Assembly: GCA_948467545.1 (NCBI GenBank)
Contig: CAOKER010000001.1
Coordinates: 287,477-351,476 of the forward strand
Source of the DNA: an uncultured Eubacteriales bacterium
GTDB taxonomy: Bacteria > Bacillota > Clostridia > Oscillospirales > CAG-272
Reading direction: 5' to 3'
Length of the DNA stretch: 64,000 nucleotides
Shown here: positions 2,850 through 33,093 of the stretch, piece after piece
Layout: each line of letters opens with the position of its first letter
Position numbering within the stretch: position 1 is the stretch's first letter
The notes under the pieces: generated by a model
Told to the model about the DNA's origin: nothing
Seen by the model: only the letters and a program-made list of their open reading frames with translations
Database searches by the model: none
Position numbers and translations under genes: made by a program

Positions 2850-3524
2850 CTACAGAGCGTATTTTATCTTGATTCTGTCTAATATTTTTCCGATAGGCTT
2901 TGAGCATAATAAAAGAAAGATTACATTTGACACAGCGTAGATTACGGTAAACGGTACTGCCGCTATGACGGCGGCGAGATATCTTGAAAAATTAAAATAG
3001 CCGTCTTCCCACAGCACCGTCCAGATGTCCATAATAAACGAAAACAGAATTCCGGAAAATATCGCGTATATTACCAGTATAATTTTGCTTCGTTTCAGCG
3101 GATCGGCGATTAATCCGGCAATGAATCCGATAATGCCCCAGCTGAACATTTGGAAGGGCGTCCACGGTCCCTGACCAAAAAAGAAATTTGAAATTACCGC
3201 AGATAAGGCTCCGGTCATGAATCCCGCTTCGCCGCCGAAATACATAGCCGTTATTACTACCATGGCCGTAACCGGCTTAAATCCGGGAATCGGTGCAAAA
3301 ATAATTCTGCCGATTGATGACAGCGCAATCATTACCGCGATAAGTATCATTCTTTTTATATCTTTTTCTCTTTTTTCAAAATGCATAAAAAACGGAATAC
3401 AGGATAGTATTACGATACAGAGCGATATCCATGCATACTGTTTACCTTTAAAGATAAAGGTACCTGCTGCGGCGATTGCCGGAATTATGATACATAGAAT
3501 TATGTAAGAAATCAATTTTTTCAT
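2850..3524 (-). CDS. ECF transporter S (substrate-capture) component, polytopic membrane protein
   Basis: 224 aa, about 6 TM helices, GQGPWTPFQMFSWG motif typical of ECF S units. Last gene of the riboswitch-controlled operon, directly after ecfT and ecfA-A'. Confidence 0.7.
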   Translation of the reverse strand: MKKLISYIILCIIIPAIAAAGTFIFKGKQYAWISLCIVILSCIPFFMHFEKREKDIKRMILIAVMIALSSIGRIIFAPIPGFKPVTAMVVITAMYFGGEAGFMTGALSAVISNFFFGQGPWTPFQMFSWGIIGFIAGLIADPLKRSKIILVIYAIFSGILFSFIMDIWTVLWEDGYFNFSRYLAAVIAAVPFTVIYAVSNVIFLLLCSKPIGKILDRIKIKYAL

Positions 3525-3569: not shown

Positions 3570-5237
3570 TTAAATCTGTTTTTTGCATAGCTGAACTACC
3601 TGACGGCAGGTTACCGCATTGGGGAAGAGCTGTCGAGCCATTCGGTTTGCGGCCGTCGTATAGAAGTTGTTTTCGGCAAAGAACCTTTCGGGAATATCGG
3701 CGGACAGAACCTCTCCGTCGAAGAACAGTGCGCATCGGTCCGCATTCTCAGCTGCGAATTCTACGTCGTGTGTGACCGTTAGAATTGTTATACCGTCGTT
3801 TTTCAGTTCCTGCAATATTTTTTTAAGAACGTACTTAGAATATGCGTCAAGTCCTTTTGTCGGCTCATCGAGAAGAAGAATTTTCGGATTAAGAAGCAGT
3901 ATTTTTGCAAGCGCGCATTTTTGCTGCTCTCCGCCGCTTAAATCATACGGGTGCTTATTAAGAAGATGGGTAATTCCGATTTTGGCGGCGGTTTTCTCTG
4001 CTTTTTCCGCACGTTTGTTTTTTGGTACTTCCAATGCTTCGAGAATTTCGAGCAGATCATCCCGCACGTTGTCCTTAATGAATACTGTCTGCGGATTTTG
4101 AGGAAGAAGCGCAAGATTTCCGCGGTACAGAGAATTGCCCTTATAATCGCGGATTGGTTTTCCGTCTATCAGCACTTTTCCTCTGTATGCTTTGTTCAGT
4201 CCGGAAATGACATTCAGCGCCGTAGTTTTTCCCGTTCCGTTTCCGCCGAGCAGGCAGTAGAATTCACCGCGCTGTATTCGGAGCGATGTACCGCGGAGAA
4301 TGTCGGGAAGATCCTTTTCGTAACGGAACCAGACATTTTTCAGTTCGATGGCCGTATCGCCGCTTTCATTGAATTCGGTCTTGAATTCGCTTTTCTGAGG
4401 CGTGATGAAATGCCGCTCCAGAAAGTCCTTTCCCTCTTTTACGGTCAGGGGACATTCATCTTCGATATTCAGAGCCTCGAATATTCGAACCGCGCTCGGA
4501 AGTCCAAGCAGCATCGGATGATCATTTTGAATCTCGGCGAGCCTTTTGCCGATGCTTTTCGGTGAATCATAGATAAGAGCTTTGCCGCTGTCCATAAGCA
4601 GAACCTTGTCGGCTATAGGAAAGACGTCCTCTAAGCGGTGCTCTGCAAGGAGAATTGTAAGTCCGAATTCCCGATTGAGCTTTTGCAGCGTGGAGATAAA
4701 ATCAGACGCGGCAATCGGATCGAGCTGACTTGTCGGTTCGTCGAGAATGAGAATTTTCGGTTGCATTACCATGACCGACGCAAGATTGAGAAGCTGTTTT
4801 TGTCCGCCCGACAATTCGTCGGTTTTTTTGCGGAACCATTCCGCAATTCCAAAGTAGCTTGCCATCTCGCCGACTCTGCGGCGGATAACTTCGGTTGAAA
4901 CGCCCATATTTTCAAGACCGAAAGCAAGCTCGTGCCATACCTTGTCGGTTACAATTTGATTGTCCGGATTTTGAAGAACGTACCCGATTTCGGATGAGCT
5001 TGTTTTTCTATCAAGTTTTTCCTGTTCCGTACTTCTGTAAAAAATTCTACCGCTCTTTTCTCCGGCGGGGGCAAGCTCTTTTTTGAGGAGCTTAAGAAAT
5101 GTTGTTTTGCCGCAGCCCGATTCTCCGCAGATTACAACGAAATCTCCGCTGTCTACATTAAGGCTGATGTTGTCTACGGCATTATTTGTGGCTTGCGGGT
5201 ATTTGAAGCTTAAATTTTCGATATGTAGTATTTCCAT
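3570..5237 (-). CDS. ECF transporter ATPase, fused duplicated EcfA-EcfA'
   Basis: Two ABC cassettes: Walker A GESGCGKTT and GGNGTGKTT, signatures LSGGQKQ and LSGGEQQ, Walker B ILILDEP and ILLLDEP. Start set to MEILHIENL (ATG 5237) preceded by AGGAGG. Overlaps the ecfT end by 28 nt. Confidence 0.9.
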   Translation of the reverse strand: MEILHIENLSFKYPQATNNAVDNISLNVDSGDFVVICGESGCGKTTFLKLLKKELAPAGEKSGRIFYRSTEQEKLDRKTSSSEIGYVLQNPDNQIVTDKVWHELAFGLENMGVSTEVIRRRVGEMASYFGIAEWFRKKTDELSGGQKQLLNLASVMVMQPKILILDEPTSQLDPIAASDFISTLQKLNREFGLTILLAEHRLEDVFPIADKVLLMDSGKALIYDSPKSIGKRLAEIQNDHPMLLGLPSAVRIFEALNIEDECPLTVKEGKDFLERHFITPQKSEFKTEFNESGDTAIELKNVWFRYEKDLPDILRGTSLRIQRGEFYCLLGGNGTGKTTALNVISGLNKAYRGKVLIDGKPIRDYKGNSLYRGNLALLPQNPQTVFIKDNVRDDLLEILEALEVPKNKRAEKAEKTAAKIGITHLLNKHPYDLSGGEQQKCALAKILLLNPKILLLDEPTKGLDAYSKYVLKKILQELKNDGITILTVTHDVEFAAENADRCALFFDGEVLSADIPERFFAENNFYTTAANRMARQLFPNAVTCRQVVQLCKKQI

Positions 5238-6091
5238 ACAATAGCCTCCTTGACTTCGATGATAAACGGAAGAAAAGACAATAATCCGAATGATATATAA
5301 ACAGCGGCGGCGTAGGGAGTCAGATTCGGCTCGCTGATCCTCGGATAATAGTAAAATACGGTTTCCCCGGCCGCTGCTCCTGAGACTGTAATTCCGAGAA
5401 GCATTATGCATACTGTCAGGAGCACGCTGTCATCGATGTGAAACCGAAAGAGGGAAAAGCTTGTCCTGCCTTTAATGCCGTATCCTCTCGCTTTCATTGA
5501 CGCGGAGGTTTCCATTGAGTTTTCGAGCGCCCAGGATATCATTGCCATAAAAACGCGCGCTGCGCTTCTGACTTTATCTGTAAAGCTTTTTGATGAATAC
5601 AGGCCCATAGCCTTTTGCGCACGATTTACTTTATGCATTTGTCTTTTGAACATGGGTATAAATCTGAGCGCCATTGAGAGGATAAGCGACAGCTTCGGAA
5701 CGACTTTGCCGAACAGATAAAGAAATTTATCGCTGGTCATTATTTCGCTGTAGCATTTACACCACATCATCACGCCTATAACCATCACAGCGATGAAAAT
5801 GCCGTATATGAAGGCTTCAAGCGTAACCGGATTTCCGTTTAGAAAGAACAGGGGTGTAACTCCGTTATGTGAAAACAGTGGGTTTGTTACGGCAATTAAA
5901 AGGAACATGGGAACATAGAATCCGATATTTCCGCCTATTTCACTGCGCCTTTGAAGCATGAGACAAAACAGAATACCGCCGAGCATGGCAAGTGTTTGCA
6001 GAATCGGATTTGATACGAACATTGTTACAAGAAGTACAGACAGAAAATAAATCATCAGTGTCGCGGGATGGTAATTTCCGAATGCTTTCAT
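5210..6091 (-). CDS. ECF transporter transmembrane (T) component, EcfT/CbiQ family
   Basis: 293 aa polytopic protein with a CbiQ-like arrangement and ARGxxxxxR-type coupling helices (MKARGYGIKGRTS). Located directly upstream of the ATPase. Confidence 0.8.
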   Translation of the reverse strand: MKAFGNYHPATLMIYFLSVLLVTMFVSNPILQTLAMLGGILFCLMLQRRSEIGGNIGFYVPMFLLIAVTNPLFSHNGVTPLFFLNGNPVTLEAFIYGIFIAVMVIGVMMWCKCYSEIMTSDKFLYLFGKVVPKLSLILSMALRFIPMFKRQMHKVNRAQKAMGLYSSKSFTDKVRSAARVFMAMISWALENSMETSASMKARGYGIKGRTSFSLFRFHIDDSVLLTVCIMLLGITVSGAAAGETVFYYYPRISEPNLTPYAAAVYISFGLLSFLPFIIEVKEAIVWKYYISKI

Positions 6092-6154: not shown

Positions 6155-6697
6155 TTATTCTATCCATATGCAGCCTATATCTTTTCCGAGATTGCAGGTA
6201 TAAACCCATTCAATTATCTGACCGTCCTTCAGTTTGTATTTGGAGCAGCCGTAGTTTGGAAATTCGCCGTCGACACGGTACATCCATCCGGATAAATGAC
6301 CGCAGGAAAATTCATAGAGATAATGAATTCCCTGAATATATACGCTGCCGTAGCTGTTCTGATCCGCGCCCTGGTATTCCATCTGTATTTTGTTGTACCG
6401 TACCGCGCGGTCGAGTATGTCAAAGACTGTATCGCCTGGACGCAGTACATATTTTGTCGGAGGTAAAATGACCCCGTCCGGCGGAACGAATTCTTCGGAT
6501 CGGAGAGCAGGATCAAGGTCGTCGTAATTATCGAGTATGGTGTCGCAGCGTATACTGATTGTGACCGTTTCGCTGTCCGGAGTAATATCGTCAATATGTG
6601 TCAGATAGTATTCGTCTATCGATTGAATGTTGGTTCCGTTTATTACGACGGCAATCAAAAAGATTATAACCGATATTGAAAGAATATCTTTTTTCAC
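6155..6697 (-). CDS. DUF4430 (transcobalamin-like C-terminal/beta domain) protein with N-terminal signal/anchor
   Basis: 180 aa. N-terminal hydrophobic helix, then GWMYRVDGEFPNYGCSKYKLKDGQIIEWVYT, the characteristic DUF4430 core. Confidence 0.7.
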   Translation of the reverse strand: MKKDILSISVIIFLIAVVINGTNIQSIDEYYLTHIDDITPDSETVTISIRCDTILDNYDDLDPALRSEEFVPPDGVILPPTKYVLRPGDTVFDILDRAVRYNKIQMEYQGADQNSYGSVYIQGIHYLYEFSCGHLSGWMYRVDGEFPNYGCSKYKLKDGQIIEWVYTCNLGKDIGCIWIE

Positions 6698-6761: not shown

Positions 6762-8669
6762 TTACTCGTCTTTCTTATACATTAATGCAAGCTCTTCCAT
6801 CTCTTTTTCCTTTTGACTGCGTTTCCTGCGAATTCTGCGAATCAGGGAAAATGCGGTTGCGGAGGCAATAAGGCAAAGCACCGTTCCTATGATAATTCCG
6901 CGTAAAAGGTTGTCAAGCTGCGTTTTTGTCTTTATGACATCCTCCCATCGTTCAATTTTAGCTTTGTCATATTCTCCGAGTTTATTATAACGCGCGGCAA
7001 TGCTGTCTACAGTCTCCTTGTCGCGGAGTGTCATTCTCTCAAACGGATAGAGCTTTTCCTTTATTTCCGTATTGATGCTGTCGATTTCCGCTTGTATTGA
7101 CGCAATATCATTTTTTGCGGCTGTCAGCTTTTCAAGGTATATATTTTTTTCGTCGAAATCTTCGCATTTATTCAATTTGTCAAGAAGTGTTGTAACAAGA
7201 ACATATTGTTCGGTTGTCAGATTTTCCGGAAGTCCGTCGGCTGCATTTCGGTCTGATTCCGAAAAATAGAGAATAACATTTTCTCCGCTTTCGTCTTTTG
7301 GACTTTCCGTAACGGGTGTAGTAACGGAAATTTTATCTATGTCAATGCCTGCTTCCTTTGCCGTGTCGGACAGCGTCCAATAATTTGACACATAGCATCG
7401 TTCGTTTTCCGGAATTGAATAAAAAGACGCGAGCAGTTTTTCAAGCTCGGATATATCCGCCGCGTCAGTCGGCGATGCAGCGATCTCAGATATCTGAACT
7501 TCCAAGTCGGAAATACGCTGCCGCAGCGAGGAGCTTTGTTCTTCACGAAAATCATAAAGGCTTCGCATTCCCTCGGACAATCTCCGTATTGCCGCCATTG
7601 TATAAAGCGTTTGTTCGCTTGCCATCGTATTTGATTGATCCGGCAGAGATGTGGGATTGTCGGGATCATAAGTAAATGAATGAATAAAACCGCCGTCATT
7701 CATTCGGTACCTCAGAATCCCGTCAAGAAGAGTGTTTCCGTTTTTTATAAACCGCTGGTCGGTAAGCGGATCAATGCCGAGACAGCACAACGCAACGACA
7801 ACCTGATCGGTGCTTTCCACATTCTCGGTTCCCCAGCTTGCAAAGTCTCCCGTATCCAGCTGAAGCTCTGACAGGCAAAGCAGCGCTTCGTCAATAATCT
7901 GCCGAACTGTTCTGCTAACTTCTTCACCGGACACTTTCTGTTTATAGGTATAGGCCTTTTCATCGTTGTAATAGGTAGAGAGCGCCTGAACTGCCATTGC
8001 CGTAATATCCGGGTCTGAGGTTTTACCGCTGAGTGCAAATCCGCCGTCTGCCAATTGCTGACGGAGAATTTCTATAATAATATCGTCTCTGGTGTAATAA
8101 GCGTCGTCAGGAATATTATACCGCATACTGTCAAGAGCAATCAACCCCCATATCCAACCGTTGATGCCTTGTCTGCCGAGAGGGGTGGTTTTTCCTCTGT
8201 TATATGTTCCGTCTGCGATAAGATTGATCGGAAGTCCTTTTTCATCGGTTCCTATATTGGTGGGATCTCCGCCCATTGCGAGAACGGCGAGCGATATACG
8301 GTGCCACTCGGTTGCCTTTGCTGCGCTTAATTTACCAGGGGTTTTGTAACGTTCCTCGATTTGATCTTTGATAACCGCAAGATATCCTTCGTAATTATCG
8401 GCGATACCAAGTCTGCCAAGCCCGATTGGGTACCAGTCTCCGGGTGTTGTTCCGGCAAGCTCAAGAAATTTTTCGTTTATGAGGTATCCGTTTTCGGATG
8501 ACCCGTTATCCGATTTTTTCCATGCTATAATATCGTCTGCAATTGACAGAATTTCTTTGGTTTGGCCTTCGCTGAGATATGAATTTTCATCGGCGAATGC
8601 TTTGGTCTCGGATATGATGGGGAAGAGAAGTATAGAACAAATCAGAAATCCCGCAATTTTTTTATTCAT
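6762..8669 (-). CDS. Signal-peptide, C-terminally membrane-anchored protein with prenyltransferase/terpene-cyclase-like alpha/alpha-toroid domain
   Basis: 635 aa. Signal peptide MNKKIAGFLICSILLFPIISETKAFA. Repeat motifs ATEWHRISLAVLAMGG, GINGWIWGLIALDS, DPDITAMAVQALSTYY, QVVVALCCLGIDP. C-terminal TM helix plus RRIRRKR. Clear paralog of an internal domain of the 2064-aa protein. Confidence 0.75.
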   Translation of the reverse strand: MNKKIAGFLICSILLFPIISETKAFADENSYLSEGQTKEILSIADDIIAWKKSDNGSSENGYLINEKFLELAGTTPGDWYPIGLGRLGIADNYEGYLAVIKDQIEERYKTPGKLSAAKATEWHRISLAVLAMGGDPTNIGTDEKGLPINLIADGTYNRGKTTPLGRQGINGWIWGLIALDSMRYNIPDDAYYTRDDIIIEILRQQLADGGFALSGKTSDPDITAMAVQALSTYYNDEKAYTYKQKVSGEEVSRTVRQIIDEALLCLSELQLDTGDFASWGTENVESTDQVVVALCCLGIDPLTDQRFIKNGNTLLDGILRYRMNDGGFIHSFTYDPDNPTSLPDQSNTMASEQTLYTMAAIRRLSEGMRSLYDFREEQSSSLRQRISDLEVQISEIAASPTDAADISELEKLLASFYSIPENERCYVSNYWTLSDTAKEAGIDIDKISVTTPVTESPKDESGENVILYFSESDRNAADGLPENLTTEQYVLVTTLLDKLNKCEDFDEKNIYLEKLTAAKNDIASIQAEIDSINTEIKEKLYPFERMTLRDKETVDSIAARYNKLGEYDKAKIERWEDVIKTKTQLDNLLRGIIIGTVLCLIASATAFSLIRRIRRKRSQKEKEMEELALMYKKDE

Positions 8670-10745: not shown

Positions 10746-10763
10746 GTTTTTGACTGCACCTTT

Positions 10764-10807
10764 TAAAATCAAAACAGGGAATGCGGCGGCAAAGCCGCAT
10801 TCCCTTG
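10764..10807 (-). terminator. Intrinsic terminator/attenuator immediately after the giant gene, inside the operon
   Basis: Minus strand: AGGGAATGCGGC-TTTGCC-GCCGCATTCCCT, a 12-bp perfect stem, followed by GTTTTGATTTT. It starts 9 nt after the stop at 10816. Confidence 0.7.
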
Positions 10808-10815
10808 TTATTTTC

Positions 10816-13800
10816 TTATACCTTCCGTTTCGACTTTGCAATGATTATAACTATCGCATACAGACTTACAGCTGTCAGCATAGCATAAAGTAAAATGTCA
10901 GAGCTGCCGCCTGTCTGAGGAGATACGGGATTATCATTGTCAGGGACATCTTTGCCATTTGAAGTACCGTCGGCAGATGATATGTCATTGTTTTTATCGC
11001 CGGACGAATCTTTGCCTGCGGAGCCGTTGCTGTTGTCCGAGCCGTTGTTCTCGGAGCCGGAGATGTCATCGGGCTTTTTATTGTCATCAGGTTTCTCATT
11101 GCCGTCGGGTTTCTTGTTGTCGTCAGGATCGTTTACCGGCGTATTTATATCGTCGGCTTCTTTTTTCAGCTGAGCAAGAACAGCTTCTGCTTTTTCCAGT
11201 TCCGAGTAGTTTGATACATAAATTTTTGCTTCATCGGAAAGTAATTCATATGCCGAACGTGCGCTTTGAATTGCTTTTTCGCTGTTGAGCGTAACCGTTC
11301 CGATGCTGTCGATTTTTTCCGACACTGCTTTTGCCGCTTCTTCGTTGCTTAGCTGTTTATCTGTTTTTACAGCGTCGAGTTTTGATTTTGCGTCTGAAAG
11401 TGCCGAATTGACCGCGTCGGCATCTTCTGCGGCGTTTATAGCGTTCATTCCCGACGAAATGATATTCTTAATTTCATCCTGCTGTGTGTTTCTGTAATCC
11501 GAAATGTCCTTGTATGTTTCAAGCTGGCTTACAGCGGTTTTCTTTGCCTGCTCTAAGGTTTGAATTGCCGTGAGCTCACTTTCGGTTTTTTCCAATACAT
11601 TAAAATTAGACACGTAACTCTTCAGCTCGTCGTCAAGATTATCGTATGCATTTCTCGCTTCGTTTACGGCGTCGGAGCTGTCGGAAGTAACTATGCCGAT
11701 GGTATTTATCTTTTCGGTTACAGTATCCACTGCGTCGGCATCTTCGGTATTTTGCCAGTAAACGAGCGGATACCCGCTGTTTATAAGCGCATATCTGTCT
11801 TTTTTGAACCCGTCTCCGAGAAGGACGGAAAAGTCATCCGATTTCATTTCCTCCGAGGTTTTGCCGACAGTGGCGTCAGTTCCGTTTGAAACTCCGCAGT
11901 TTGTAATATCGGAATTGTAGTAACAATCTGTAATTTCGTTTTTGTATGTTACAAGACTTACGATTGCTCCTGCGCCGTCAATAATGTTTTCTCCTGTCAC
12001 GGAAATTGTACCGGCATTGTAGCAATTGCGGATTGTATGTCCGTCCTGAACCCTGCCCGCAATTCCTGCCGCGTTGTACTTTGCCGTGACGGTGCCCGCG
12101 TTGTAGCAGCCGTATATTGTAACATTTACGGAGGTGCCGTTTCTGGATACGTCCAAATGTCCGACGATACCGCCGACCGAAGAGTCGGAAGAATATATAT
12201 TTCCGGAGTTATAGCAGCCTGTGATGATGCTTTCACCGCCGTCTCGGACGGTACCTACTACACCGCCGCTGTATCCTCCGCAGTAAATGTCGGCACCATT
12301 CCAGCAATTAATGAAGTCGGCTCCGTTGCTCCACTGAGCGATACCGCCTATAAACGATTTGTTTGAAGCCTCTATTTCTCCGCTGGCTACTCCCGTATTT
12401 TTTATAACTGCGTTAGTACCTGCATATCCGAACAGACCGCCTGACGTGGAATAGAGATTATCGATAACATATCCTTGTCCGTCAAAGATACCGTCAAATT
12501 GGCGGGCGCTTGATTTACCGATAGGTGTCCAGTCGGAATAATTGCTGAGATCTATGTGCGCGGTAAGCAGAACTGTTTTGTCTGTAAAGCTCTCGCCTGC
12601 ATTTACCCGTTCGGCGAACGCAGCGAGCTCTTCCGCAGATCCGATTTCGGTACCCGCACGGACAGGAGCCTCATCGCCGATTGTTTTTTGATTCATCAAA
12701 ACAGGATAGCCGCTGTTGATGTTTTCACTGTCTTTTGCAAAAGCTGAGCCGAGCAGTGACGCAAAGGAGTCGTCTTTCATTTCCGCGCCCGTTTTTGCGG
12801 ATGCTTCTCCGCTGACAGCACCTTCGGCGTCGGAGCCGTCGTCTGTAAATACGCCGTACGTTTTGGTGCATGAAGTATTCAAGTAGTATACGTTATCGAT
12901 ACTTACTGCAGTTTCTGCTGAGCTGCCGAATATAGCTCCCGAAGCCTCTCCGTCGTTGACAGTTCCTGTATTGTAGCAATTTTTAATCTGGTTATTTACA
13001 TCGGTTCCTCCGAGCCTGAAGCTTCCGACTATGCCTCCGAGTCCCCAGCTTCCGCCGCCTCCGATTTCTCCGGTATTATAGCAATCCGTTATGACAGTCT
13101 TTGCTCCGTTATTTTTCCAGCGGTTCGGTCCGGACTGTCCGAGAATGCCTCCTCCTGTATAAGACGCATTTACAGTTCCGTGGTTTGAGCAGCTTTCAAT
13201 AACAACGGATGCCCCGTCTTCGACAGAACCTAAAATACCTCCGATTCCAAAGGTACCTGAAACAGAAGCATAGTTGTGACAGTTTCTGATAATTACGGAC
13301 GCTTCTGAGATAACCTCACCGGCCACAGCGCCGATACTTGTATTATAGCTTCCGCCGAGATTTCCGCTCGCGATAGTAAGATTTTCAATGACCGCACCGT
13401 TTCCGAGTCTGCCGAACAGGCCGCAGACATTGTAGGTTGAGCCGTTCAGATTCCAAATTCGATAGCCGTCTCCGTCGAAGCAGCCTCTGAAGCCTTCGTT
13501 TGTATTATCGGCAATTCCTCTCCAGTCATCGATATTTTTCATATTGATGTTCTGTGTCATTTTGAAGTAAATACCGGCGGTATTCATATTTTTTGTGTAT
13601 ATATAGTTTCTCAGGTCGACAAGATCGTCCGCGGTTTTAATGAGATACGGATCATCCGCCGTGCCTTCTCCGTCCCACGGCATTTTTTCACGTACTTCAA
13701 TTGATACCGAAGTCTTTAGAATGCCGTAAGAAATATAAATTGCGTCGGTATTCAGGTCGAGCTTGCTTTTTACCGAAAGCTTATATCCGGTGATTTCTTT

Positions 13801-16800
13801 TGTGCTGCCGTCGCTGTAAAAGGCCGTAATGATCATGCCGGAAGCATCAAATGAATCGCCTTCATAGTATCTGAGCTTGTCCGGATTCTTAGTAACCGAA
13901 ATAGAAATAATATAAGGGGTATCTTTGTCAAGCTCAGATTCGCCGCCGATAAGTTCAAGAGCGGAGGCCAGCGACGAATAATTGTTTACGTAACGGCGCT
14001 CGTCTTCGTGAACTGAGCGGAATACGGAGAGCGCTGATTTAAGCTTTTCCTTATAATCGGGTTCGGAAGGATCCGGCATGGAAGCTATAGCCGAGACGGC
14101 GCTGTTCATGGCGCCCTTTTCTTCTGCGGTCCATTCTCCTCGCATATCGTAAAGCGAACGCATTCCGTTTTCAAGCCTCCAGTACGAAACAAGCGCATAT
14201 GTCGCCTGATCGTTCGCCATCGAATTAAATCCTGAATTTAAAACGTGACAGAACCCTCCGTCGGAGAGACGGAAACTCAGAATACCGTCTAAAAGTGTTT
14301 TGCCGTTCGATGTTATAAATCGTTCATCCTCCGCCGGATCGATTCCGAGCGAGCAGAGTGCTACAACGACCTGAGAAATACTTTCAACATTATTGGTATT
14401 CCACGAGGTAAAGCCTCCGCTGCTGTTCATCATTGATCCGAGGCGATCGAGAGCTTCATCTATGCAGTTACGGACGGTTTTGGAGAGCTTCAGACCGCTG
14501 TTTTCGTTTGTATATGTATAAATAGTATCATCATTGTAATATGGAGCAAGCGCTTGAATTGCCATTGCCGTAATGTCGACGTCCGAGCTGCTTCCGTAGC
14601 CTCCGAGTACCCAGCCGCCGTATTCGTTTCCGTTTACGCCGTCGGTAAGCTGCATTTTCAGAATTTCGGTAATAAAGGTTTCACGGGAATATTTTGCGTC
14701 TGAAGGTACTTCATACATACCCGTATCCATGGCTATAAGTCCCCAAATCCAGCCGTTTATTCCCTGAGTACCGGGACCTGCTTTAAGCGCATTGTTGTAA
14801 CTTCCGTCCGCAATAAGATCAATCGGGCTTCCGTTGTATGTACCGAAACTTACAGGATTGCCGCCGAGCGCTGCGATTGAGACGACTGCACGGTGCCATT
14901 CGGTTGCCTTGGCGCTGTGCAGAATTCCGCCGTTATCCGAATAAGTCTTTTCAATATAGGATTTCATTGCGGCAAGATAATCATCGTATCCTGTTCCGTC
15001 ATCAATCATATAGTAATATGCACCGGAATCATAGTATCCGAAGCGTCCCATTGCAAGCGCCATCCAATCGGTTTCGGTGGAACTTGCTCCCGACATATAC
15101 CCCTCGTTTCCGAGAAGTGTTCCGCTGATATCCGAATGTTTTTTCGTGCTGGCGACAGCTGCTTTGATGTATTCGGCAAGCTGCGCGGAAAGCTCTGTAC
15201 TTTCTGTGAATGCGGGGCGGACGGGTATGTCCGTGCAGACAGAGCTTTCCCAAAGCAGTATGGGATTGCCTTGGCTGTCGGTAAACGCGGAGCCGAGAAA
15301 AGAGGCGGAGATGCTTTCGGTTTCGCTTATGCCTGTCTTATTGTCTGTTCCCGTTCCTTTGATATAATAGCAGCCGCTGTTTGTTCCCCTGCTTGCCCCG
15401 ATTACCGCACCGATGTTGTTTGCATTGCCTGCGGAATCTATTACCATGCCTGCATTATAGCAGTTTGTAAGCGTCGGAGAAGCCGCCTTGTGCCCTCCGG
15501 TTATGCCGCCGACTGTAGCGGGACCGGTAACGGGGCCTGTATTATAGCAGTTTTCCACCGTACCAGCTCTCCAATGCTGTCCTGTAACTCCGCCGATGTA
15601 TCCTGTAGTGCCCGTAACCGAACCGGAGTTATAGCATCCGCTGACAGTACAGTCTCCGTTGACCGAGCCTGCTATACCTCCGACGTTGGCGCTGCCGGAT
15701 ACAGTTGCTTCATTGCCGCAGTTTGTAATTTTTCCTGCTGTGAGTTTGCCGACTATTCCCGCGACGTCTCCGGAGCCTGCCGAGCTTCCTTTGACCACAA
15801 GATTTCTTACGGTACCGCCGTCTACATTTCCGAAGAAACCGAGTGATGATCCTCCGTTGATATAAAGTCCGCTTACTGTGTGATAGTTACCGTCAAATAT
15901 TCCTTTAAAGGGTGACGCCGACGTTCCGACGGGAGTCCACGGAGAGTTCTCTCCGCCGAGATATACATTTACATCCAGACGTATGAGCTTCTCCTCGTAC
16001 GTGTTTCCTTCGTTTACGCTTACGGCAAATGCCTTCAGCTCTTCATAGCTTCCGATTATTACATCCGGCATTTTTGTCTGCCATGCAAGAATCGGATATC
16101 CGCGGTTGAGATTGTCATCGTCCGCTTTAAATCCGATACCGAGAGCTGCCGCGTCGAGAGTGTCGGTCTCGGCTATACCGTTCTTGCTGTCGGTTCCGGT
16201 GCCTCTCAGGTAAAAGCAGCCGCTGTTTGTCCCTCTGCTTGCACCGATTACCGCGCCGATGTTGTTGGCATTGCCTGCGGAATCTATTACCATGCCTGCA
16301 TTATAGCAGTTTGTAAGAGTCGGAGAAGCTGCCTTGTGACCTCCGGCTACGCCGCCGACTGTAGCGGGACCGGTGACGACGCCTGTATTATAGCAGTTTT
16401 CCACTGTTCCCGCTCTCCAATGCTGTCCTGTAACTCCGCCGATGTAGCCTGTGGTGCCCGTAACCGAACCGGAGTTATAGCATCCAATGACAGAAGATGC
16501 GCCGCCGACGTACCCTACAACGCCGCCTACGGCGCTTGAGCCGTTTACGTCTGCGTTGCTGCCGCAGTTTTTAATATTTCCTTCAGAGAGATATCCGACG
16601 ATACCTGCGACATTTCCGCTTCCTGTAACACTTCCTTTTACTGTTACACTTTCAACGGTACCGTTTTCAACATATCCGAAAAGTCCGAGATTTTTTCCCG
16701 AACTGTCGGAGATGAAAAGACCGCTGATAATATGGTTTTCTCCGTCAAAGGTTCCTTTAAAGCGGTTGTTTTCATTTCCTATAGGTGTCCACGGAGAGCT

Positions 16801-17010
16801 CTCTCCGCCGAGAGCAATGTCCGCTTCAAGGACAACCGTTTTGCCCTCGTATGTATTTCCGTTGTTTACATTGGCAGCAAACTGCTGCAGCTCTGCAAGA
16901 GTTGAAATTTTCAGGTCAGCCTCTTCTGCGGATACTGTCATCGGTATTGCCGATATTATCATAATAACAGAAAGAAGGCCTGCAATAAAGCGATTTGTTT
17001 TAATTTTCAT
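10816..17010 (-). CDS. Giant (2064 aa) cell-wall-anchored surface protein: signal peptide, 4 GLUG-repeat modules, alpha/alpha-toroid domain, Ig-like domain, helical repeats, SPQTG sorting signal
   Basis: Signal peptide ..AIPMTVSA. Many GLUG-type repeats (VAGIVGY..NCxN..VGGVVGY). Toroid motifs (ATEWHRAVVSIAALGG, GINGWIWGLIAMDTG, DVDITAMAIQALAPYY). An Ig-like segment (ISISVTKNPDKLRYYEGDSFDASGM). The C-terminus is SPQTG plus a hydrophobic helix plus KSKRKV. Confidence 0.9.
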   Translation of the reverse strand: MKIKTNRFIAGLLSVIMIISAIPMTVSAEEADLKISTLAELQQFAANVNNGNTYEGKTVVLEADIALGGESSPWTPIGNENNRFKGTFDGENHIISGLFISDSSGKNLGLFGYVENGTVESVTVKGSVTGSGNVAGIVGYLSEGNIKNCGSNADVNGSSAVGGVVGYVGGASSVIGCYNSGSVTGTTGYIGGVTGQHWRAGTVENCYNTGVVTGPATVGGVAGGHKAASPTLTNCYNAGMVIDSAGNANNIGAVIGASRGTNSGCFYLRGTGTDSKNGIAETDTLDAAALGIGFKADDDNLNRGYPILAWQTKMPDVIIGSYEELKAFAVSVNEGNTYEEKLIRLDVNVYLGGENSPWTPVGTSASPFKGIFDGNYHTVSGLYINGGSSLGFFGNVDGGTVRNLVVKGSSAGSGDVAGIVGKLTAGKITNCGNEATVSGSANVGGIAGSVNGDCTVSGCYNSGSVTGTTGYIGGVTGQHWRAGTVENCYNTGPVTGPATVGGITGGHKAASPTLTNCYNAGMVIDSAGNANNIGAVIGASRGTNSGCYYIKGTGTDNKTGISETESISASFLGSAFTDSQGNPILLWESSVCTDIPVRPAFTESTELSAQLAEYIKAAVASTKKHSDISGTLLGNEGYMSGASSTETDWMALAMGRFGYYDSGAYYYMIDDGTGYDDYLAAMKSYIEKTYSDNGGILHSAKATEWHRAVVSIAALGGNPVSFGTYNGSPIDLIADGSYNNALKAGPGTQGINGWIWGLIAMDTGMYEVPSDAKYSRETFITEILKMQLTDGVNGNEYGGWVLGGYGSSSDVDITAMAIQALAPYYNDDTIYTYTNENSGLKLSKTVRNCIDEALDRLGSMMNSSGGFTSWNTNNVESISQVVVALCSLGIDPAEDERFITSNGKTLLDGILSFRLSDGGFCHVLNSGFNSMANDQATYALVSYWRLENGMRSLYDMRGEWTAEEKGAMNSAVSAIASMPDPSEPDYKEKLKSALSVFRSVHEDERRYVNNYSSLASALELIGGESELDKDTPYIISISVTKNPDKLRYYEGDSFDASGMIITAFYSDGSTKEITGYKLSVKSKLDLNTDAIYISYGILKTSVSIEVREKMPWDGEGTADDPYLIKTADDLVDLRNYIYTKNMNTAGIYFKMTQNINMKNIDDWRGIADNTNEGFRGCFDGDGYRIWNLNGSTYNVCGLFGRLGNGAVIENLTIASGNLGGSYNTSIGAVAGEVISEASVIIRNCHNYASVSGTFGIGGILGSVEDGASVVIESCSNHGTVNASYTGGGILGQSGPNRWKNNGAKTVITDCYNTGEIGGGGSWGLGGIVGSFRLGGTDVNNQIKNCYNTGTVNDGEASGAIFGSSAETAVSIDNVYYLNTSCTKTYGVFTDDGSDAEGAVSGEASAKTGAEMKDDSFASLLGSAFAKDSENINSGYPVLMNQKTIGDEAPVRAGTEIGSAEELAAFAERVNAGESFTDKTVLLTAHIDLSNYSDWTPIGKSSARQFDGIFDGQGYVIDNLYSTSGGLFGYAGTNAVIKNTGVASGEIEASNKSFIGGIAQWSNGADFINCWNGADIYCGGYSGGVVGTVRDGGESIITGCYNSGNIYSSDSSVGGIVGHLDVSRNGTSVNVTIYGCYNAGTVTAKYNAAGIAGRVQDGHTIRNCYNAGTISVTGENIIDGAGAIVSLVTYKNEITDCYYNSDITNCGVSNGTDATVGKTSEEMKSDDFSVLLGDGFKKDRYALINSGYPLVYWQNTEDADAVDTVTEKINTIGIVTSDSSDAVNEARNAYDNLDDELKSYVSNFNVLEKTESELTAIQTLEQAKKTAVSQLETYKDISDYRNTQQDEIKNIISSGMNAINAAEDADAVNSALSDAKSKLDAVKTDKQLSNEEAAKAVSEKIDSIGTVTLNSEKAIQSARSAYELLSDEAKIYVSNYSELEKAEAVLAQLKKEADDINTPVNDPDDNKKPDGNEKPDDNKKPDDISGSENNGSDNSNGSAGKDSSGDKNNDISSADGTSNGKDVPDNDNPVSPQTGGSSDILLYAMLTAVSLYAIVIIIAKSKRKV
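15370..15639 (-). repeat. Copy 2 of an in-frame 270-bp near-identical intragenic duplication in the giant gene
   Basis: About 90% identical to 16216..16485, offset exactly 846 bp (282 codons). Encodes YNSGSVTGTTGYIGGVTGQHWRAGTVENCYNTG...NNIGAVIGASRGTNSGC in both copies. Confidence 0.9.
16216..16485 (-). repeat. Copy 1 of the 270-bp intragenic duplication
   Basis: See 15370..15639. The whole roughly 282-aa module (aa ~29-310 versus ~311-590) is duplicated, with this core nearly identical at DNA level. Confidence 0.9.
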
Positions 17011-17083: not shown

Positions 17084-17308
17084 TCAGGATTTTGAGGCGG
17101 TCTTTTTTCTTTTTTTTGATTTTTTTGTTGCCTTTTTGGGTTCTTTAAGCCCGACGGCTTCCAGTGCACGCGGCCACGGTCCGAGGAACGCCTTAATTCG
17201 GGATCGGGTGGGTTCATCAAAATCATCCTTGCGCGGAATTCTGCCGAGTTCTTCTTTTTTTCGATGCAAAAGCTCTTCCGCCCAGGACTTTTTCTCATCT
17301 GACGTCAC
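17084..17308 (-). CDS. Small basic protein resembling a single homing-endonuclease-associated (HNH) repeat / HTH-like module
   Basis: 74 aa. GTG start at 17308 preceded by GAAGGAGGG. GRIPRKDDFDEPTRSRIKAFLGPWPRALEAVGL resembles the repeat pattern (g.iPt..ef......y...FGsW..AL..AGL). Lys-rich tail. First ORF after the riboswitch. Confidence 0.6.
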   Translation of the reverse strand: MTSDEKKSWAEELLHRKKEELGRIPRKDDFDEPTRSRIKAFLGPWPRALEAVGLKEPKKATKKSKKRKKTASKS

Positions 17309-17461
17309 TTCTATCCCTCCTTCAAACTGAAAAATTCAGGTACTCACAGGTACTCAAAAGAAAAACTCCCTAAGGTTATCAGGCCTTAAGGAGCACAACA
17401 GATTTAATCCGCTTATGAATCATGACATAGAGATACTGCGGTCTGACTTGAGATTTGGAAA

Positions 17462-17528: not shown

Positions 17529-17555
17529 CTCACCAAAGCTGTGTTAAACCTGAAA

Positions 17556-17790
17556 AGAAACGGCAGGTATCCTGACTTATGATTCAGCGAATTATCATAT
17601 TATTAATTATATAATTTATTAATTACACGATAAAATTAATCATACAATGGATTCACACAGGGCGGCGCCTTCTCAGGACAGATTTTTCCCAATGGCTTTT
17701 GCGCCCCTATCTCGTCAAATACAGTAATGGCGGTTGTTCCGGATTCGAACCGGATTCCCTTTTTATCTACTCAGTATACAACTTTTCAAA
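17556..17790 (-). promoter_or_regulatory. Cobalamin (AdoCbl) riboswitch
   Basis: Minus strand reads AGGGAATCCGGTTCGAATCCGGAACAACCGCCATTACTGTA ... GCCATTGGG ... GAGAAGGCG ... and the B12 box AAGTCAGGATACCTGCCGTT (plus 17561..17578). Order and spacing match the consensus, apart from an AT-rich ~75-nt insertion before the B12 box. Confidence 0.8.
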
Positions 17791-17825
17791 CCGTATCTTC
17801 TAATATCAGTTATTAAATTTTTACC

Positions 17826-17854
17826 ATTATATCACTTTTACGGTTTTTTTGCAA
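17826..17854 (-). promoter_or_regulatory. Sigma-70 promoter driving the riboswitch and operon
   Basis: Minus strand TTGCAA, 17-nt spacer, TATAAT. Confidence 0.7.
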
Positions 17855-30914: not shown

Positions 30915-30944
30915 ATACAGGAGCAGACAGAATCTGCAATATTA

Positions 30945-31054
30945 CAGAGTAGAACGTGCGCGTTAAGTGCCGCGGGGACGGGGAGTTTGTCCTGCGGACG
31001 AAATTACCGGTATTGAAACCGGGAAATGCGGTGTACGTTTCGCATCCCGCTGTG
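30945..31054 (+). promoter_or_regulatory. THF (tetrahydrofolate) riboswitch
   Basis: CAGAGTAG..CGCGTTAAGTG..GGGGA..GGACGAA..GGGAAATGCGGTGTACG..GCATCCCGCTGTG. This matches the conserved THF-I core (AGAGUAG, GCGUUAAGUG, ACGAA, GCGGUG, GCAUCCGCU) and sits upstream of a FolT-like gene. Confidence 0.85.
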
Positions 31055-31074: not shown

Positions 31075-31106
31075 ACCGACGGCACAGACGTCGGTTTTTT
31101 GTTTTT
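31075..31106 (+). terminator. THF riboswitch expression-platform terminator
   Basis: ACCGACG-GCACAGA-CGTCGGT followed by TTTTTTGTTTTT. Confidence 0.8.
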
Positions 31107-31146
31107 CATATGCTTCTGCGGTTTCGCAGAAAGGAAACGGTTGAAA

Positions 31147-33093
31147 ATGACAGATTTATCGGATGACATGACAAATGAGAAAGCAGGAGGAGAACGGACT
31201 GCGGCGGATGATAAGTTCGGTGGTGCAGTGAAGGTGAAAAGGGAGCTTTTCGCGGAGACGGCGGAGGTTCAGAGTGTCGGCAATATGCGGTGTTTGAATG
31301 ACGCCGAAAATCATGAAACGGAAGCAGCGGCAGAAACGTCGGATATGGCGAGTAAAGCGAATATGGCTGGCACAGCGGATATGGCCGGTACAGCGAATAT
31401 GGCAGATACAGCGGATATGGTGGATACGGCAGGTGAGGCGGGTATGACAGAATCGTGCAGTGCCGAAACGGGAACTTTCGGAGTGAGTTTGGTATCTGGG
31501 AAAACGGTAGAGGATGACAAGCAGGCTTCGGGGGCTGACGGGGAACAGGTACTTTTCAGCAAAGCCAGAATGTCGGAAGCTGCGGAAACGAATTCGGCGG
31601 CAAACAATCAAACGCTGACGGATGAAAATGTTTCGGATCAAGATGATGCGGAAACAAGGGCTGACAGTTTGTATGATCGAAAGGATCAAACCGGTTCAAA
31701 AGAAGCGGCCTGTGCAGAAAACGGAGGCGGAGAAGATAAAAAAGCAAAGAAAAATTCACGACTTGTTAAAAGCTCGTTGCTTAAAATGACGCTCTGTGCG
31801 GTTTTTATCGGACTTGCAGTAGTCTCGAAGCTTTTTTTGACGATTAAGATTCCGTTGCTTGGAGCGGACGGTCTGCGTATCAGCCTTGCGGGAGTGTTTA
31901 CAGCGTTTCCCGCATTTATCTGCGGTCCGATATACGGCGGTATAGCAAGCGCCGCGTCTGATTTTATAGGCTATCTTATAAAGCCAGACGGAGCATATAT
32001 TCCTTGGCTTACATTGACAGCATTTGCCGGAGGCGTACTCAAAGGTATCATCTGGCGGCTGTTTGTCCGCAGACCGAGAAAAAGCGTAAGAATTCTGGCG
32101 CTCTCTGCATTTGTAATTGTGGGGGCTTTGGGGCTGACGGTTCATATAAGTTTAATTTCGGACGGAATCCTCAACGATATTACGGCGTCTCAATCGCAGC
32201 TTGCAACGAGGGGCAGAATGGAATCTATTGAGAAAAATGCGGTTTCCGGAGCGGTAGTAAATCTTGCAAAATATAATAATGATGTTTTTACTGTAACTGC
32301 GGTTTCCGACAGTGAGACGATTGTTCTGCCGTCAAAGGCTGATCTTGACGGATATGAACGTCCCGTTACAAAAATCGGCGGCGGAGCTTTCTCGTCCTGT
32401 GAGGATGTGAAAAGAATATACATACCGTCCGTATATACTTCTATAGATAAGGAAGCTTTTACCGGAATTGATTTTTCGGAAATTGTAATCGTTTCTGAAA
32501 AGAGTTCTTCGGCGGAGAAATTTGCGTCTCAGAACGGAATATCTTTTGAAGAAGGCACGTGCGAAGAGCTTACGCTTAAGCTTGTTTCCGTATACAGCGA
32601 CGGGGGTTATTCAGTTTCGGCACTTCAGAGCGGCGGCTTTACAGTCAAATCGAGCGACGCTTACAGAAAAAATTTATCCGGATATATTTCATTTACAACC
32701 GTCGGACTGGAGCTTATCGGGCTTATAGGTATTCTCTATTTTGTTCTTGAGGCCGCCGTGTCCCGATATGAAGCTTCCGGAACCGACAGCAGAGATAAGG
32801 ACGGAAAGCAAAGGAAGAAAATACTCGGCCATATTGTAAACCCTCAGCTTGTAAAGATTATGCTCTCTACTGTAATATCGGGACTTATTGTCACGACTGT
32901 CAACACTAAGATACTGCAGGCTGTTCTCGCTGTATACAGCGGCAGATCGTTTATCATTCTCTGGATTCCGAGATTTATCGAGGAGCTTGCGGTATGCATG
33001 GTACAGTCGGTGCTGATTTCGGTCCTTTACGGCGTTTATATCGGTACGGTCGGCAAAAAAACTCAGCGTATACTTGACGGCAAGGGGGATTAA
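31147..33093 (+). CDS. Chimeric FolT-like ECF S-component: ~215-aa acidic low-complexity N-terminus, S-component TM core, inserted leucine-rich-repeat (BspA-type) domain
   Basis: Start set to MTDLSDD, because the ATG at 31099 lies inside the terminator T-tract. TM core LCAVFIGLAVVSKLF..LRISLAGVFTAFPAFICGPIYGGIASAASDFIGYLIK resembles folate-family S components. Insert VTKIGGGAFSSCEDVKRIYIPSVYTSIDKEAFTG is a BspA-like LRR. More TM helices at the C-terminus. Confidence 0.7.
   Translation: MTDLSDDMTNEKAGGERTAADDKFGGAVKVKRELFAETAEVQSVGNMRCLNDAENHETEAAAETSDMASKANMAGTADMAGTANMADTADMVDTAGEAGMTESCSAETGTFGVSLVSGKTVEDDKQASGADGEQVLFSKARMSEAAETNSAANNQTLTDENVSDQDDAETRADSLYDRKDQTGSKEAACAENGGGEDKKAKKNSRLVKSSLLKMTLCAVFIGLAVVSKLFLTIKIPLLGADGLRISLAGVFTAFPAFICGPIYGGIASAASDFIGYLIKPDGAYIPWLTLTAFAGGVLKGIIWRLFVRRPRKSVRILALSAFVIVGALGLTVHISLISDGILNDITASQSQLATRGRMESIEKNAVSGAVVNLAKYNNDVFTVTAVSDSETIVLPSKADLDGYERPVTKIGGGAFSSCEDVKRIYIPSVYTSIDKEAFTGIDFSEIVIVSEKSSSAEKFASQNGISFEEGTCEELTLKLVSVYSDGGYSVSALQSGGFTVKSSDAYRKNLSGYISFTTVGLELIGLIGILYFVLEAAVSRYEASGTDSRDKDGKQRKKILGHIVNPQLVKIMLSTVISGLIVTTVNTKILQAVLAVYSGRSFIILWIPRFIEELAVCMVQSVLISVLYGVYIGTVGKKTQRILDGKGD
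31339..31446 (+). repeat. Six in-frame 18-bp tandem repeats encoding (A/S)(D/N)MA(G/D)T hexapeptides
   Basis: Units start at 31339, 31357, 31375, 31393, 31411, 31429. Peptide SDMASKANMAGTADMAGTANMADTADMVDTAGEAGM. Confidence 0.85.

Follow-up and report, generated by a model that had tools for sequence, protein, structure and literature searches.

A GLUG-flanked toroid protein encoded behind a cobalamin riboswitch as a candidate wall-anchored component of a split corrinoid capture system

Corrinoid acquisition by Firmicutes is little known (Putnam et al. 2022, PMC8941943). The closest described systems were predicted by Burroughs, Balaji, Iyer & Aravind (2007, Biol Direct 2:4, PMC1796856), who proposed that bacterial transcobalamin-like SLBB proteins scavenge B12, and who described SLBB fusions to alpha/alpha toroids, signal peptides, Gram-positive anchors, operons with CbiO and CbiQ, and hosts without B12 synthesis. 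DUF4430 is the family of the C-terminal domain of transcobalamins (PMC4350170; PMC1796856). An energy-coupling factor (ECF) transporter, ECF-CbrT of Lactobacillus delbrueckii, imports cobalamin and cobinamide (PDB 6FNP; Santos et al. 2018, PMC5997447). For Latilactobacillus sakei, Verplaetse et al. (bioRxiv 10.1101/864751) modeled Lsa1839 and Lsa1840 as separate beta and alpha transcobalamin-like proteins beside an ECF module, and reported a role in heme uptake. Here we describe a locus in a 64,000-nucleotide (nt) stretch of DNA, called the window below, from an uncultured Eubacteriales bacterium (contig CAOKER010000001.1, positions 287,477 to 351,476 of the forward strand). Our subject is a minus-strand open reading frame (ORF), 10816..17010, which is open throughout 2064 codons and encodes a predicted surface protein, the giant protein, in which an alpha/alpha toroid lies between GLUG-type modules.

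We put the probability at roughly 0.6 that this 2064-amino-acid (aa) protein is the wall-anchored outer component of a cobalamin-repressed system for corrinoid capture and import, acting with the DUF4430 protein encoded by the next gene. Judged from sequence and structural models, its most likely role is to present half of a transcobalamin-like B12 trap at the wall, the toroid being the alpha-like half and the DUF4430 domain of its neighbor the beta-like half. A split surface trap of this kind, with predicted B12 capture, would be a common design in gut Gram-positive bacteria. The assignment of the two halves, and the recognition that the system type was already predicted in 2007 (PMC1796856), go beyond the original prediction, which had been made from the sequence alone.

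The genes from the riboswitch through the S component all lie on one strand, in the following order (coordinates are those of the window).

17826..17854, minus strand: promoter-like site, TTGCAA-17-TATAAT with TG (consensus scan, 10/12 matches; a consensus match only)
17545..17810, minus strand: cobalamin riboswitch aptamer, RF00174 (81 bits against a gathering score of 31.5; full model, 1-189)
17365..17394, minus strand: terminator-like hairpin and T-run (11-bp stem, then TTTTTCTTTTG)
17084..17308, minus strand: 74-aa basic HNH_repeat protein, the first ORF behind the riboswitch (PF18780, 1.3e-10, 41.8 bits)
10816..17010, minus strand: giant protein, 2064 aa
8913..10745, minus strand: 610-aa partner (signal peptide, immunoglobulin (Ig)-like domain, DUF4430 (PF14478, 1.5e-6), ~230-aa low-complexity stalk, C-terminal membrane helix)
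6762..8669, minus strand: 635-aa toroid paralog, membrane-anchored (signal peptide, toroid, helical stalk, C-terminal membrane helix)
6155..6697, minus strand: 180-aa DUF4430 protein with an N-terminal membrane helix (PF14478, 2.2e-17)
5210..6091, minus strand: ECF T component, CbiQ family (PF02361, 1.7e-9)
3570..5411, minus strand: fused double ATP-binding cassette ATPase EcfA-A' (PF00005 twice, 1.4e-59)
2850..3524, minus strand: CbrT-like ECF S component (PDB 6FNP, Pfam)

Residues 52-221 of the S component match chain A of PDB 6FNP, which is CbrT of ECF-CbrT (E = 1.1e-12), and the protein also matches the Pfam family ECF-ribofla_trS (1.6e-14). A same-strand riboswitch, a CbrT-like S component, EcfT and EcfA-A' are together the parts of a predicted B12-riboswitch-regulated ECF-CbrT operon. 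By its position, the giant gene is the first large gene of this putative B12-repressed uptake operon. The hairpin at 17365..17394 is likely the expression platform of the riboswitch. The 74-aa ORF starts with GTG behind a strong ribosome-binding site, GAAGGAGGG, and an ORF of this kind holds the same position between riboswitch and giant gene in 13 other loci (e.g. L019, L021 and L009), at 46-84% identity. Its product has a poly-Lys tail and lacks a signal peptide. The partner appears mechanically as a 642-aa ORF, 8913-10841 on the minus strand, with a TTG start that overlaps the end of the giant gene. Its true start is likely the ATG at 10745 (MNIKISRR..., then the signal peptide), leaving a gap of 70 nt after the giant stop. 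Numbered from this ATG, the DUF4430 domain of the partner covers roughly aa 130-310. The 635-aa paralog has 1909 homologs, none of which carries a name. When the giant protein, the 642-aa partner and the 635-aa paralog were each compared in full with PDB sequences, no B12 binder, for example BtuG, BtuH, BtuF or transcobalamin, was matched.

The source genome, 97.7% complete, holds a single cobalamin riboswitch match, the RF00174 match at 17545..17810. A search for CbiC in the genome found none, and three encoded proteins carry B12-binding domains. Such gene content is typical of a corrinoid user dependent on import. Elsewhere in the window, a tetrahydrofolate riboswitch (RF01831, 67 bits) lies at 30943-31054 on the plus strand, before a 664-aa ORF at 31099..33093.

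The giant protein is composed of the following parts.

16927..17010, minus strand: signal peptide, aa 1-28 (by inspection: basic N-terminus, hydrophobic core, VSA/EE)
15235..16926, minus strand: GLUG-type modules M1 (aa 29-313) and M2 (aa 314-592) (mutual identity, Pfam Glug, DNA repeat)
13921..15234, minus strand: toroid with C-terminal helical extension, aa 593-1030 (paralog identity, AlphaFold, Foldseek, family profile)
13687..13920, minus strand: Big_3 Ig-like domain, aa 1031-1108 (PF07523)
11755..13686, minus strand: GLUG-type modules M3 (aa 1109-1448) and M4 (aa 1449-1752) (3n6z match, identity to M1/M2)
11116..11754, minus strand: paired helical repeats, aa 1753-1965 (self-comparison)
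10924..11115, minus strand: D/N/K/P/S-rich low-complexity stalk, aa 1966-2029 (sequence)
10816..10923, minus strand: cell-wall sorting signal of SPQTG, hydrophobic helix, KSKRKV and stop (sequence)

The N-terminus, MKIKTNRFIAGLLSVIMIISAIPMTVSA/EE, resembles a Sec signal peptide by inspection. M1 and M2 are 64.5% identical as proteins and are offset by 846 nt, or 282 codons. They hold the sole DNA-level repeat in the gene, whose best stretch is 300 nt at 81% identity with 846-nt spacing. The Pfam Glug family (PF07581) is matched only marginally, at 20.9 bits against a gathering cut-off of 20.5, and the GLUG assignment also draws on a match to 3n6z and on Glug matches in many orthologs. M3 and M4 are 30-36% identical to M1/M2 and to each other (E = 1e-16 to 1e-33). 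M3 matches PDB 3n6z, a fragment of a Bacteroides 'putative immunoglobulin A1 protease' (E = 7.9e-11). Big_3 (PF07523) scores 21.9 bits at aa 1042-1088 against a cut-off of 21.2, and the helical repeats share 47% identity across 59 aa (E = 1e-15). At the C-terminus, aa 2029-2064 consist of VSPQTGG, SSDILLYAMLTAVSLYAIVIIIA and KSKRKV, with SPQTG at aa 2030-2034 (10909..10923), which is a sorting signal of the Clostridioides difficile SrtB type. The original prediction had read this same succession from the sequence, from the signal peptide and two tandem ~282-aa GLUG modules through the toroid, Ig-like segment, two further GLUG modules, helical repeats and D/N/K/P-rich stalk to the SPQTG signal, and had placed a B12 riboswitch above the gene. 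The whole of that anatomy was borne out.

Searches across the giant protein found no HEXXH motif, no Pfam peptidase family, IgA1 protease (M26) included, and no CGEQ thioester motif of TED domains. A genome search revealed no GLUG modules elsewhere in the source genome.

The toroid was assigned from its family profile, its relatives and a structural model, because direct Pfam and NCBIfam scans of the giant protein's own toroid, and of the 635-aa paralog, gave no match. It is 46% identical over ~390 residues to aa 63-434 of that paralog. When a profile built from 19 diverse members of the toroid family was compared with the PDB, the matches included squalene-hopene cyclase (1.3e-12) and drimenyl-diphosphate synthase (9.5e-12). 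SQHop_cyclase_C (PF13243) is matched by 14 of the 19 members and Prenyltrans by 12, and distant relatives carry SQHop_cyclase_C, Prenyltrans and TED_complement matches. An AlphaFold model of the giant toroid reached a predicted local distance difference test (pLDDT) score of 82 and a predicted template-modeling (pTM) score of 0.87. Foldseek matched this model exclusively to alpha/alpha toroids in the PDB, all with weak E-values: terpene cyclases, prenyltransferase beta subunits, (alpha/alpha)6 glycosidases and transcobalamin (4zrp, E = 1.4e-2). Together, the profile and the model point to membership in the terpenoid cyclase/prenyltransferase alpha/alpha toroid superfamily. A family motif, D-V-D-I-T-A, aligns with the catalytic D-V-D-D-T-A of the cyclases. 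In the giant protein the aligned residues are DVDIT at aa 810, and the third aspartate of the catalytic DxDD is Ile, Met or Leu family-wide. The toroid assignment holds, but the domain is very probably not a cyclase.

Relatives tie the toroid to DUF4430 and to B12 control. In all five fetched loci that have upstream DNA, including Paenibacillus and a Peptococcaceae metagenome-assembled genome, a toroid surface-protein gene is directly preceded on its own strand by the cobalamin riboswitch RF00174. Among GTDB loci of close orthologs it is present in 15 of 20, and four of the five without it end at a contig edge. Two cultured members of the family's host range, Ligaoa zhengdingensis NSJ-31 and Sporosarcina ureae DSM 2281, also carry the riboswitch beside a toroid gene. 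The gene order of surface toroid protein, DUF4430, (toroid with membrane helix), DUF4430, CbiQ, double ATPase and S component is seen again in Paenibacillus contaminans, in Paenibacillus alba and on contigs from gut metagenomes. On two contigs from pig gut and another metagenome (L010 and L011, encoding P0230 and P0228), DUF4430, CbiQ, ATPase and S component genes come first, and a giant SLH-anchored toroid/DUF4430 protein comes last. One DUF4430 domain in L010/L011 joins a toroid through a linker of ~12 residues.

The pairing of toroid and SLBB (DUF4430) domains, found here in neighboring genes, also occurs within single chains. A natural fusion, P0217, combines a P0001-like protein with the Ig and DUF4430 part of a P0002-like protein, and SLH-anchored proteins of Paenibacillus and Clostridiaceae alternate DUF4430 and toroid domains in one chain. 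A third toroid paralog in the source genome, P0244 (588 aa; L094:6595-8361 = C4:162594-164360), consists of a signal peptide, toroid, low-complexity linker, two membrane helices and DUF4430 (1.9e-15), and so holds the transcobalamin domain order, toroid then DUF4430, in a single chain. Its neighbors are a lipoate/biotin ligase-family gene and an HD-domain gene. These fusions, together with the conserved neighborhood, indicate that the toroid is functionally tied to DUF4430 and the ECF-CbrT importer. Using an alignment built from natural DUF4430...toroid segments, we modeled a natural DUF4430-toroid unit (L010:9484-10698) with AlphaFold, which gave a pLDDT of 85.8 and a pTM of 0.70. Foldseek matched this two-domain model to transcobalamin 2v3n with E = 4.5e-5; only the toroid was aligned, since Foldseek follows sequence order and the two domains stand in the opposite order to that of transcobalamin. 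Transcobalamin is among the best-matching folds for this model, as it is for that of the giant toroid. The top PDB match of a DUF4430 profile was the beta domain of haptocorrin, though its E of 0.76 falls short of significance.

The toroid of the giant protein retrieves 774 large proteins, and the domain survey covered the best 119 of these. Some 100 clusters of large proteins share the core of GLUG, toroid, Big_3 and GLUG, and the assemblies behind them, of Oscillospiraceae-like bacteria, are independent. Among the 119 surveyed, the bare core is found in 34 clusters and the remainder are expansions, up to the G-G-TOR-BIG-G-G-HEL order of the giant protein. Big_3 follows the toroid in all GLUG-type homologs surveyed, and the number of GLUG modules ranges from two to four among orthologs. 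The C-termini of the orthologs are mostly [S/P/T]PxTG(D); others are dockerins, SLH repeats, ChW repeats or a plain membrane helix, and the core is kept. Surface display therefore appears conserved, while the mode of anchoring is not. Gut assemblies from human, pig and rabbit are rich in this family, and a single ortholog cluster contains 4590 member sequences. The toroid profile, run against GTDB genomes, matched at least 595 stretches; the 78 matches listed are all from Bacillota, among them the cultured Ligaoa, Robinsoniella, Sporosarcina, Peribacillus and Pseudogracilibacillus. With the GLUG region as query there were 2929 matches. At 36% identity or more they belong to the toroid family alone, and at lower identity they include a wide set of toroid-less GLUG giants and a separate ~3350-aa family. 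Members of the latter (L095:8001-18047, P0253 and ~10 related clusters) have five GLUG modules, CarboxypepD_reg/PEGA-type domains, DUF4430 and toroid, and a membrane anchor.

With respect to anchoring, two class B sortase ORFs in the source genome exceed the TIGR03064 cut-off of 153.75 bits, scoring 158.9 and 178, and both match the C. difficile SrtB structures 4ux7 and 5gyj (E = 1e-23 to 1e-28). About seven other ORFs of the genome carry xPxTG or xVQTG signals, among them TPKTGD, APATGD and three AVQTGD. The AVQTGD signals end three paralogous proteins of ~384 aa (on C9 and C30) and are similar to the NVQTG-type SrtB substrates of C. difficile. A class D-like sortase (228 aa; C18, L001:574-1896) is encoded directly downstream of a 206-aa protein ending in IKPTG, and the two are probably a dedicated enzyme-substrate pair.

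These results confirm much of the original prediction and alter its emphasis. Besides its domain calls and B12 control, its expectation of a class B sortase in the genome was met by two such enzymes, its question about orthologs was answered by the conserved toroid within the GLUG core, and its link to vitamin capture gained from the operon content, the riboswitch conservation in relatives and the transcobalamin-type partner domains. The architecture it called unusual proved to be widespread, given the ~100 clusters with the core and the GTDB spread of the toroid family. Its suggestion of host or particle adhesion by the GLUG modules found no support. The protein has neither an IgA-protease catalytic domain nor HEXXH. 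In relatives the anchor is swapped for a dockerin, SLH repeats or a membrane helix, which favors display over a specific adhesive target.

We propose a mechanism in which scarce B12 would lead the riboswitch to permit transcription of the operon. The giant protein would be exported by Sec, and a class B sortase would attach its SPQTG signal to peptidoglycan. Its toroid would serve as the alpha-like half of a transcobalamin-like corrinoid site, and the DUF4430 (SLBB) domain of the next gene's product, carried on a long flexible stalk, would be the beta-like half. A second pair, the 635-aa toroid paralog and the 180-aa membrane-proximal DUF4430 protein, would sit at the membrane, where the CbrT-like S component of the operon's dedicated ECF transporter would receive the corrinoid from it. 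The GLUG modules, Big_3 domain, helical repeats and stalk would hold the toroid outward, most likely as a scaffold or spacer that places it at or past the wall surface, although for the GLUG modules this role is a guess. A fuller version, tentative and on balance doubtful, would have gut Oscillospiraceae run a two-tier corrinoid relay over the thick wall. The outer pair would capture cobamides, perhaps stripping them from host carriers or other microbes with help from the GLUG modules, the inner pair would load CbrT, and the 74-aa HNH_repeat protein would act in the cytoplasm as a regulator or chaperone, the whole forming a Gram-positive counterpart of BtuG/BtuH.

Several observations weigh against corrinoid capture by the giant protein, and other explanations have to be set beside it. 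Foldseek TM-scores of the toroid against transcobalamin are only 0.37-0.46, and those against prenyltransferases are at least as good. By sequence, the toroid is closer to terpene cyclases and prenyltransferases than to transcobalamin, and Pfam, PDB and even profile searches gave no sequence match to the transcobalamin/intrinsic factor family. No riboswitch or ECF genes lie near P0244. In the one checked locus of the ~3350-aa family, L095, there is no cobalamin riboswitch in the 1.2 kb upstream and there are no adjacent ECF genes, so GLUG plus toroid is not always B12-controlled. A literature search found no paper on B12 binding by bacterial toroid/DUF4430 proteins, and in L. sakei, according to the preprint cited above, deletion of a homologous operon with split alpha and beta proteins and an ECF module reportedly lowered heme uptake. 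This last result speaks for another tetrapyrrole such as heme as the ligand, or for a corrinoid precursor only, with indirect regulation by B12; that ECF-CbrT also carries cobinamide, and that some toroid/DUF4430 proteins lack a riboswitch (P0244, L095), fits the same idea. We nevertheless consider it quite unlikely, given a cobalamin riboswitch conserved before these genes across Bacilli, Clostridia and Peptococcaceae, an S component closest to CbrT, and a genome without CbiC yet with B12-binding-domain enzymes. The toroid could instead be an enzyme: a catalyst of the terpene-cyclase/prenyltransferase type, or one that attacks a surface substrate as an (alpha/alpha)6 glycoside hydrolase or lyase. 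The cyclase and synthase that lead its profile matches, the motif aligned with their catalytic residues, and the GH88- and GH105-type toroids in the Foldseek list all suggest as much. Against such activity stand the replaced DxDD aspartate, an extracellular location where isoprenoid diphosphates are not expected, low TM-scores against glycosidases (0.38-0.54), and neighborhoods that keep riboswitch, DUF4430 and ECF genes nearby but not carbohydrate genes. An enzymatic role is very improbable.

The giant protein may alternatively be an adhesin first, its GLUG modules binding a host or particle ligand (mucus, IgA, dietary particles or microbes) and thus placing the cell near a B12 source, with the toroid a minor accessory. 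The homology of the modules to the 3n6z fragment, their use in many giant surface proteins (the 2929 matches) and a module number that varies between two and four, as is common in adhesins, are consistent with this view. What is constant in the family, however, is the toroid-Big_3 unit flanked by GLUG behind a B12 riboswitch, and GLUG-less relatives of the Paenibacillus type retain the riboswitch and ECF genes. The giant protein also lacks a protease or lectin domain and HEXXH, and the genome has no GLUG modules outside it. We therefore regard a primarily adhesive function as unlikely. The internal repeats, with M1 and M2 as similar as they are, also raise the question of an assembly artefact in which separate genes were fused into one long ORF. 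Such a chimera is scarcely credible: the longest repeat at DNA level spans 300 nt and is just 81% identical, colinear orthologs come from independent assemblies (P0125, 2059 aa, on 14 contigs; P0126, 2072 aa), and the G-G-TOR-BIG-G-G(-HEL) order is found in ~30 further clusters. Corrinoid capture on the wall thus remains the reading that we favor.

Competition for scarce corrinoids among Gram-positive gut commensals is poorly known. Cobamide binding by the toroid/DUF4430 pairs, if it occurs, would make them bacterial, surface-located relatives of the human B12 carriers. It would also give a function to a large number of giant proteins now listed as 'hypothetical', and research on how gut bacteria compete for vitamins would have a defined object in the wall-anchored giant protein. 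Should the ligand prove to be heme or another molecule, a long-standing prediction would be corrected.

Among surface proteins of Bacteroides, BtuG is a B12-binding lipoprotein and an accessory of riboswitch-controlled gut uptake loci for B12. BtuH is another (Putnam et al. 2022, PMC8941943), and the likeness of both to the giant protein is a functional analogy. Both BtuG and BtuH are unrelated in sequence to the giant protein and belong to Gram-negative TonB-dependent systems. The N-terminal regions of streptococcal IgA1 proteases and GLUG-motif proteins (PF07581; 3n6z) share the GLUG repeat modules; the giant protein differs from the proteases in lacking an M26 peptidase domain or HEXXH, and its modules flank a toroid. 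With the C. difficile SrtB substrates that carry (S/P)PxTG, as presented in the portions of PMC4155245 and PMC5569036 drawn on here, it shares SPQTG, the hydrophobic segment and the basic tail, and the candidate sorting-signal set of the source genome resembles the substrate motifs given there. Compared with C. difficile as portrayed in those portions, the source organism has two class B sortases and one class D-like sortase, any of which is a candidate for SPQTG.

Animal transcobalamin, intrinsic factor and haptocorrin hold B12 between two domains, and the folds of these, an alpha/alpha toroid and an SLBB/DUF4430 beta domain, are the two found here. The likeness of the toroid to these carriers is at the level of the fold only (TM-scores as above), and here the domains are on separate proteins. 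ECF-CbrT has a CbrT S component and an ECF module in common with the present operon (E = 1.1e-12 for the S component); in L. delbrueckii the module is shared and there are no extracellular helpers, whereas here a dedicated module is preceded by four surface proteins. The L. sakei system, Lsa1836-1840, consists of small proteins assigned to heme uptake, and the portions of the preprint used here mention no giant wall-anchored protein, GLUG modules or second alpha/beta pair. In a literature search we found no paper on GLUG-flanked toroid giants or their riboswitch control. The systems predicted in 2007 are the nearest: they share secreted or wall-anchored toroid and SLBB proteins, paralogous SLBB proteins in each operon, CbiQ/CbiO, and hosts without B12 biosynthesis. 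GLUG fusions and riboswitch control are not described in that paper (PMC1796856), from which the word 'riboswitch' is absent. Unlike those systems, the present one has toroid and SLBB on separate polypeptides, and its toroid lies between GLUG modules in a 2064-aa sortase substrate. The giant protein is a GLUG-embedded architectural variant of an already predicted B12 capture system.

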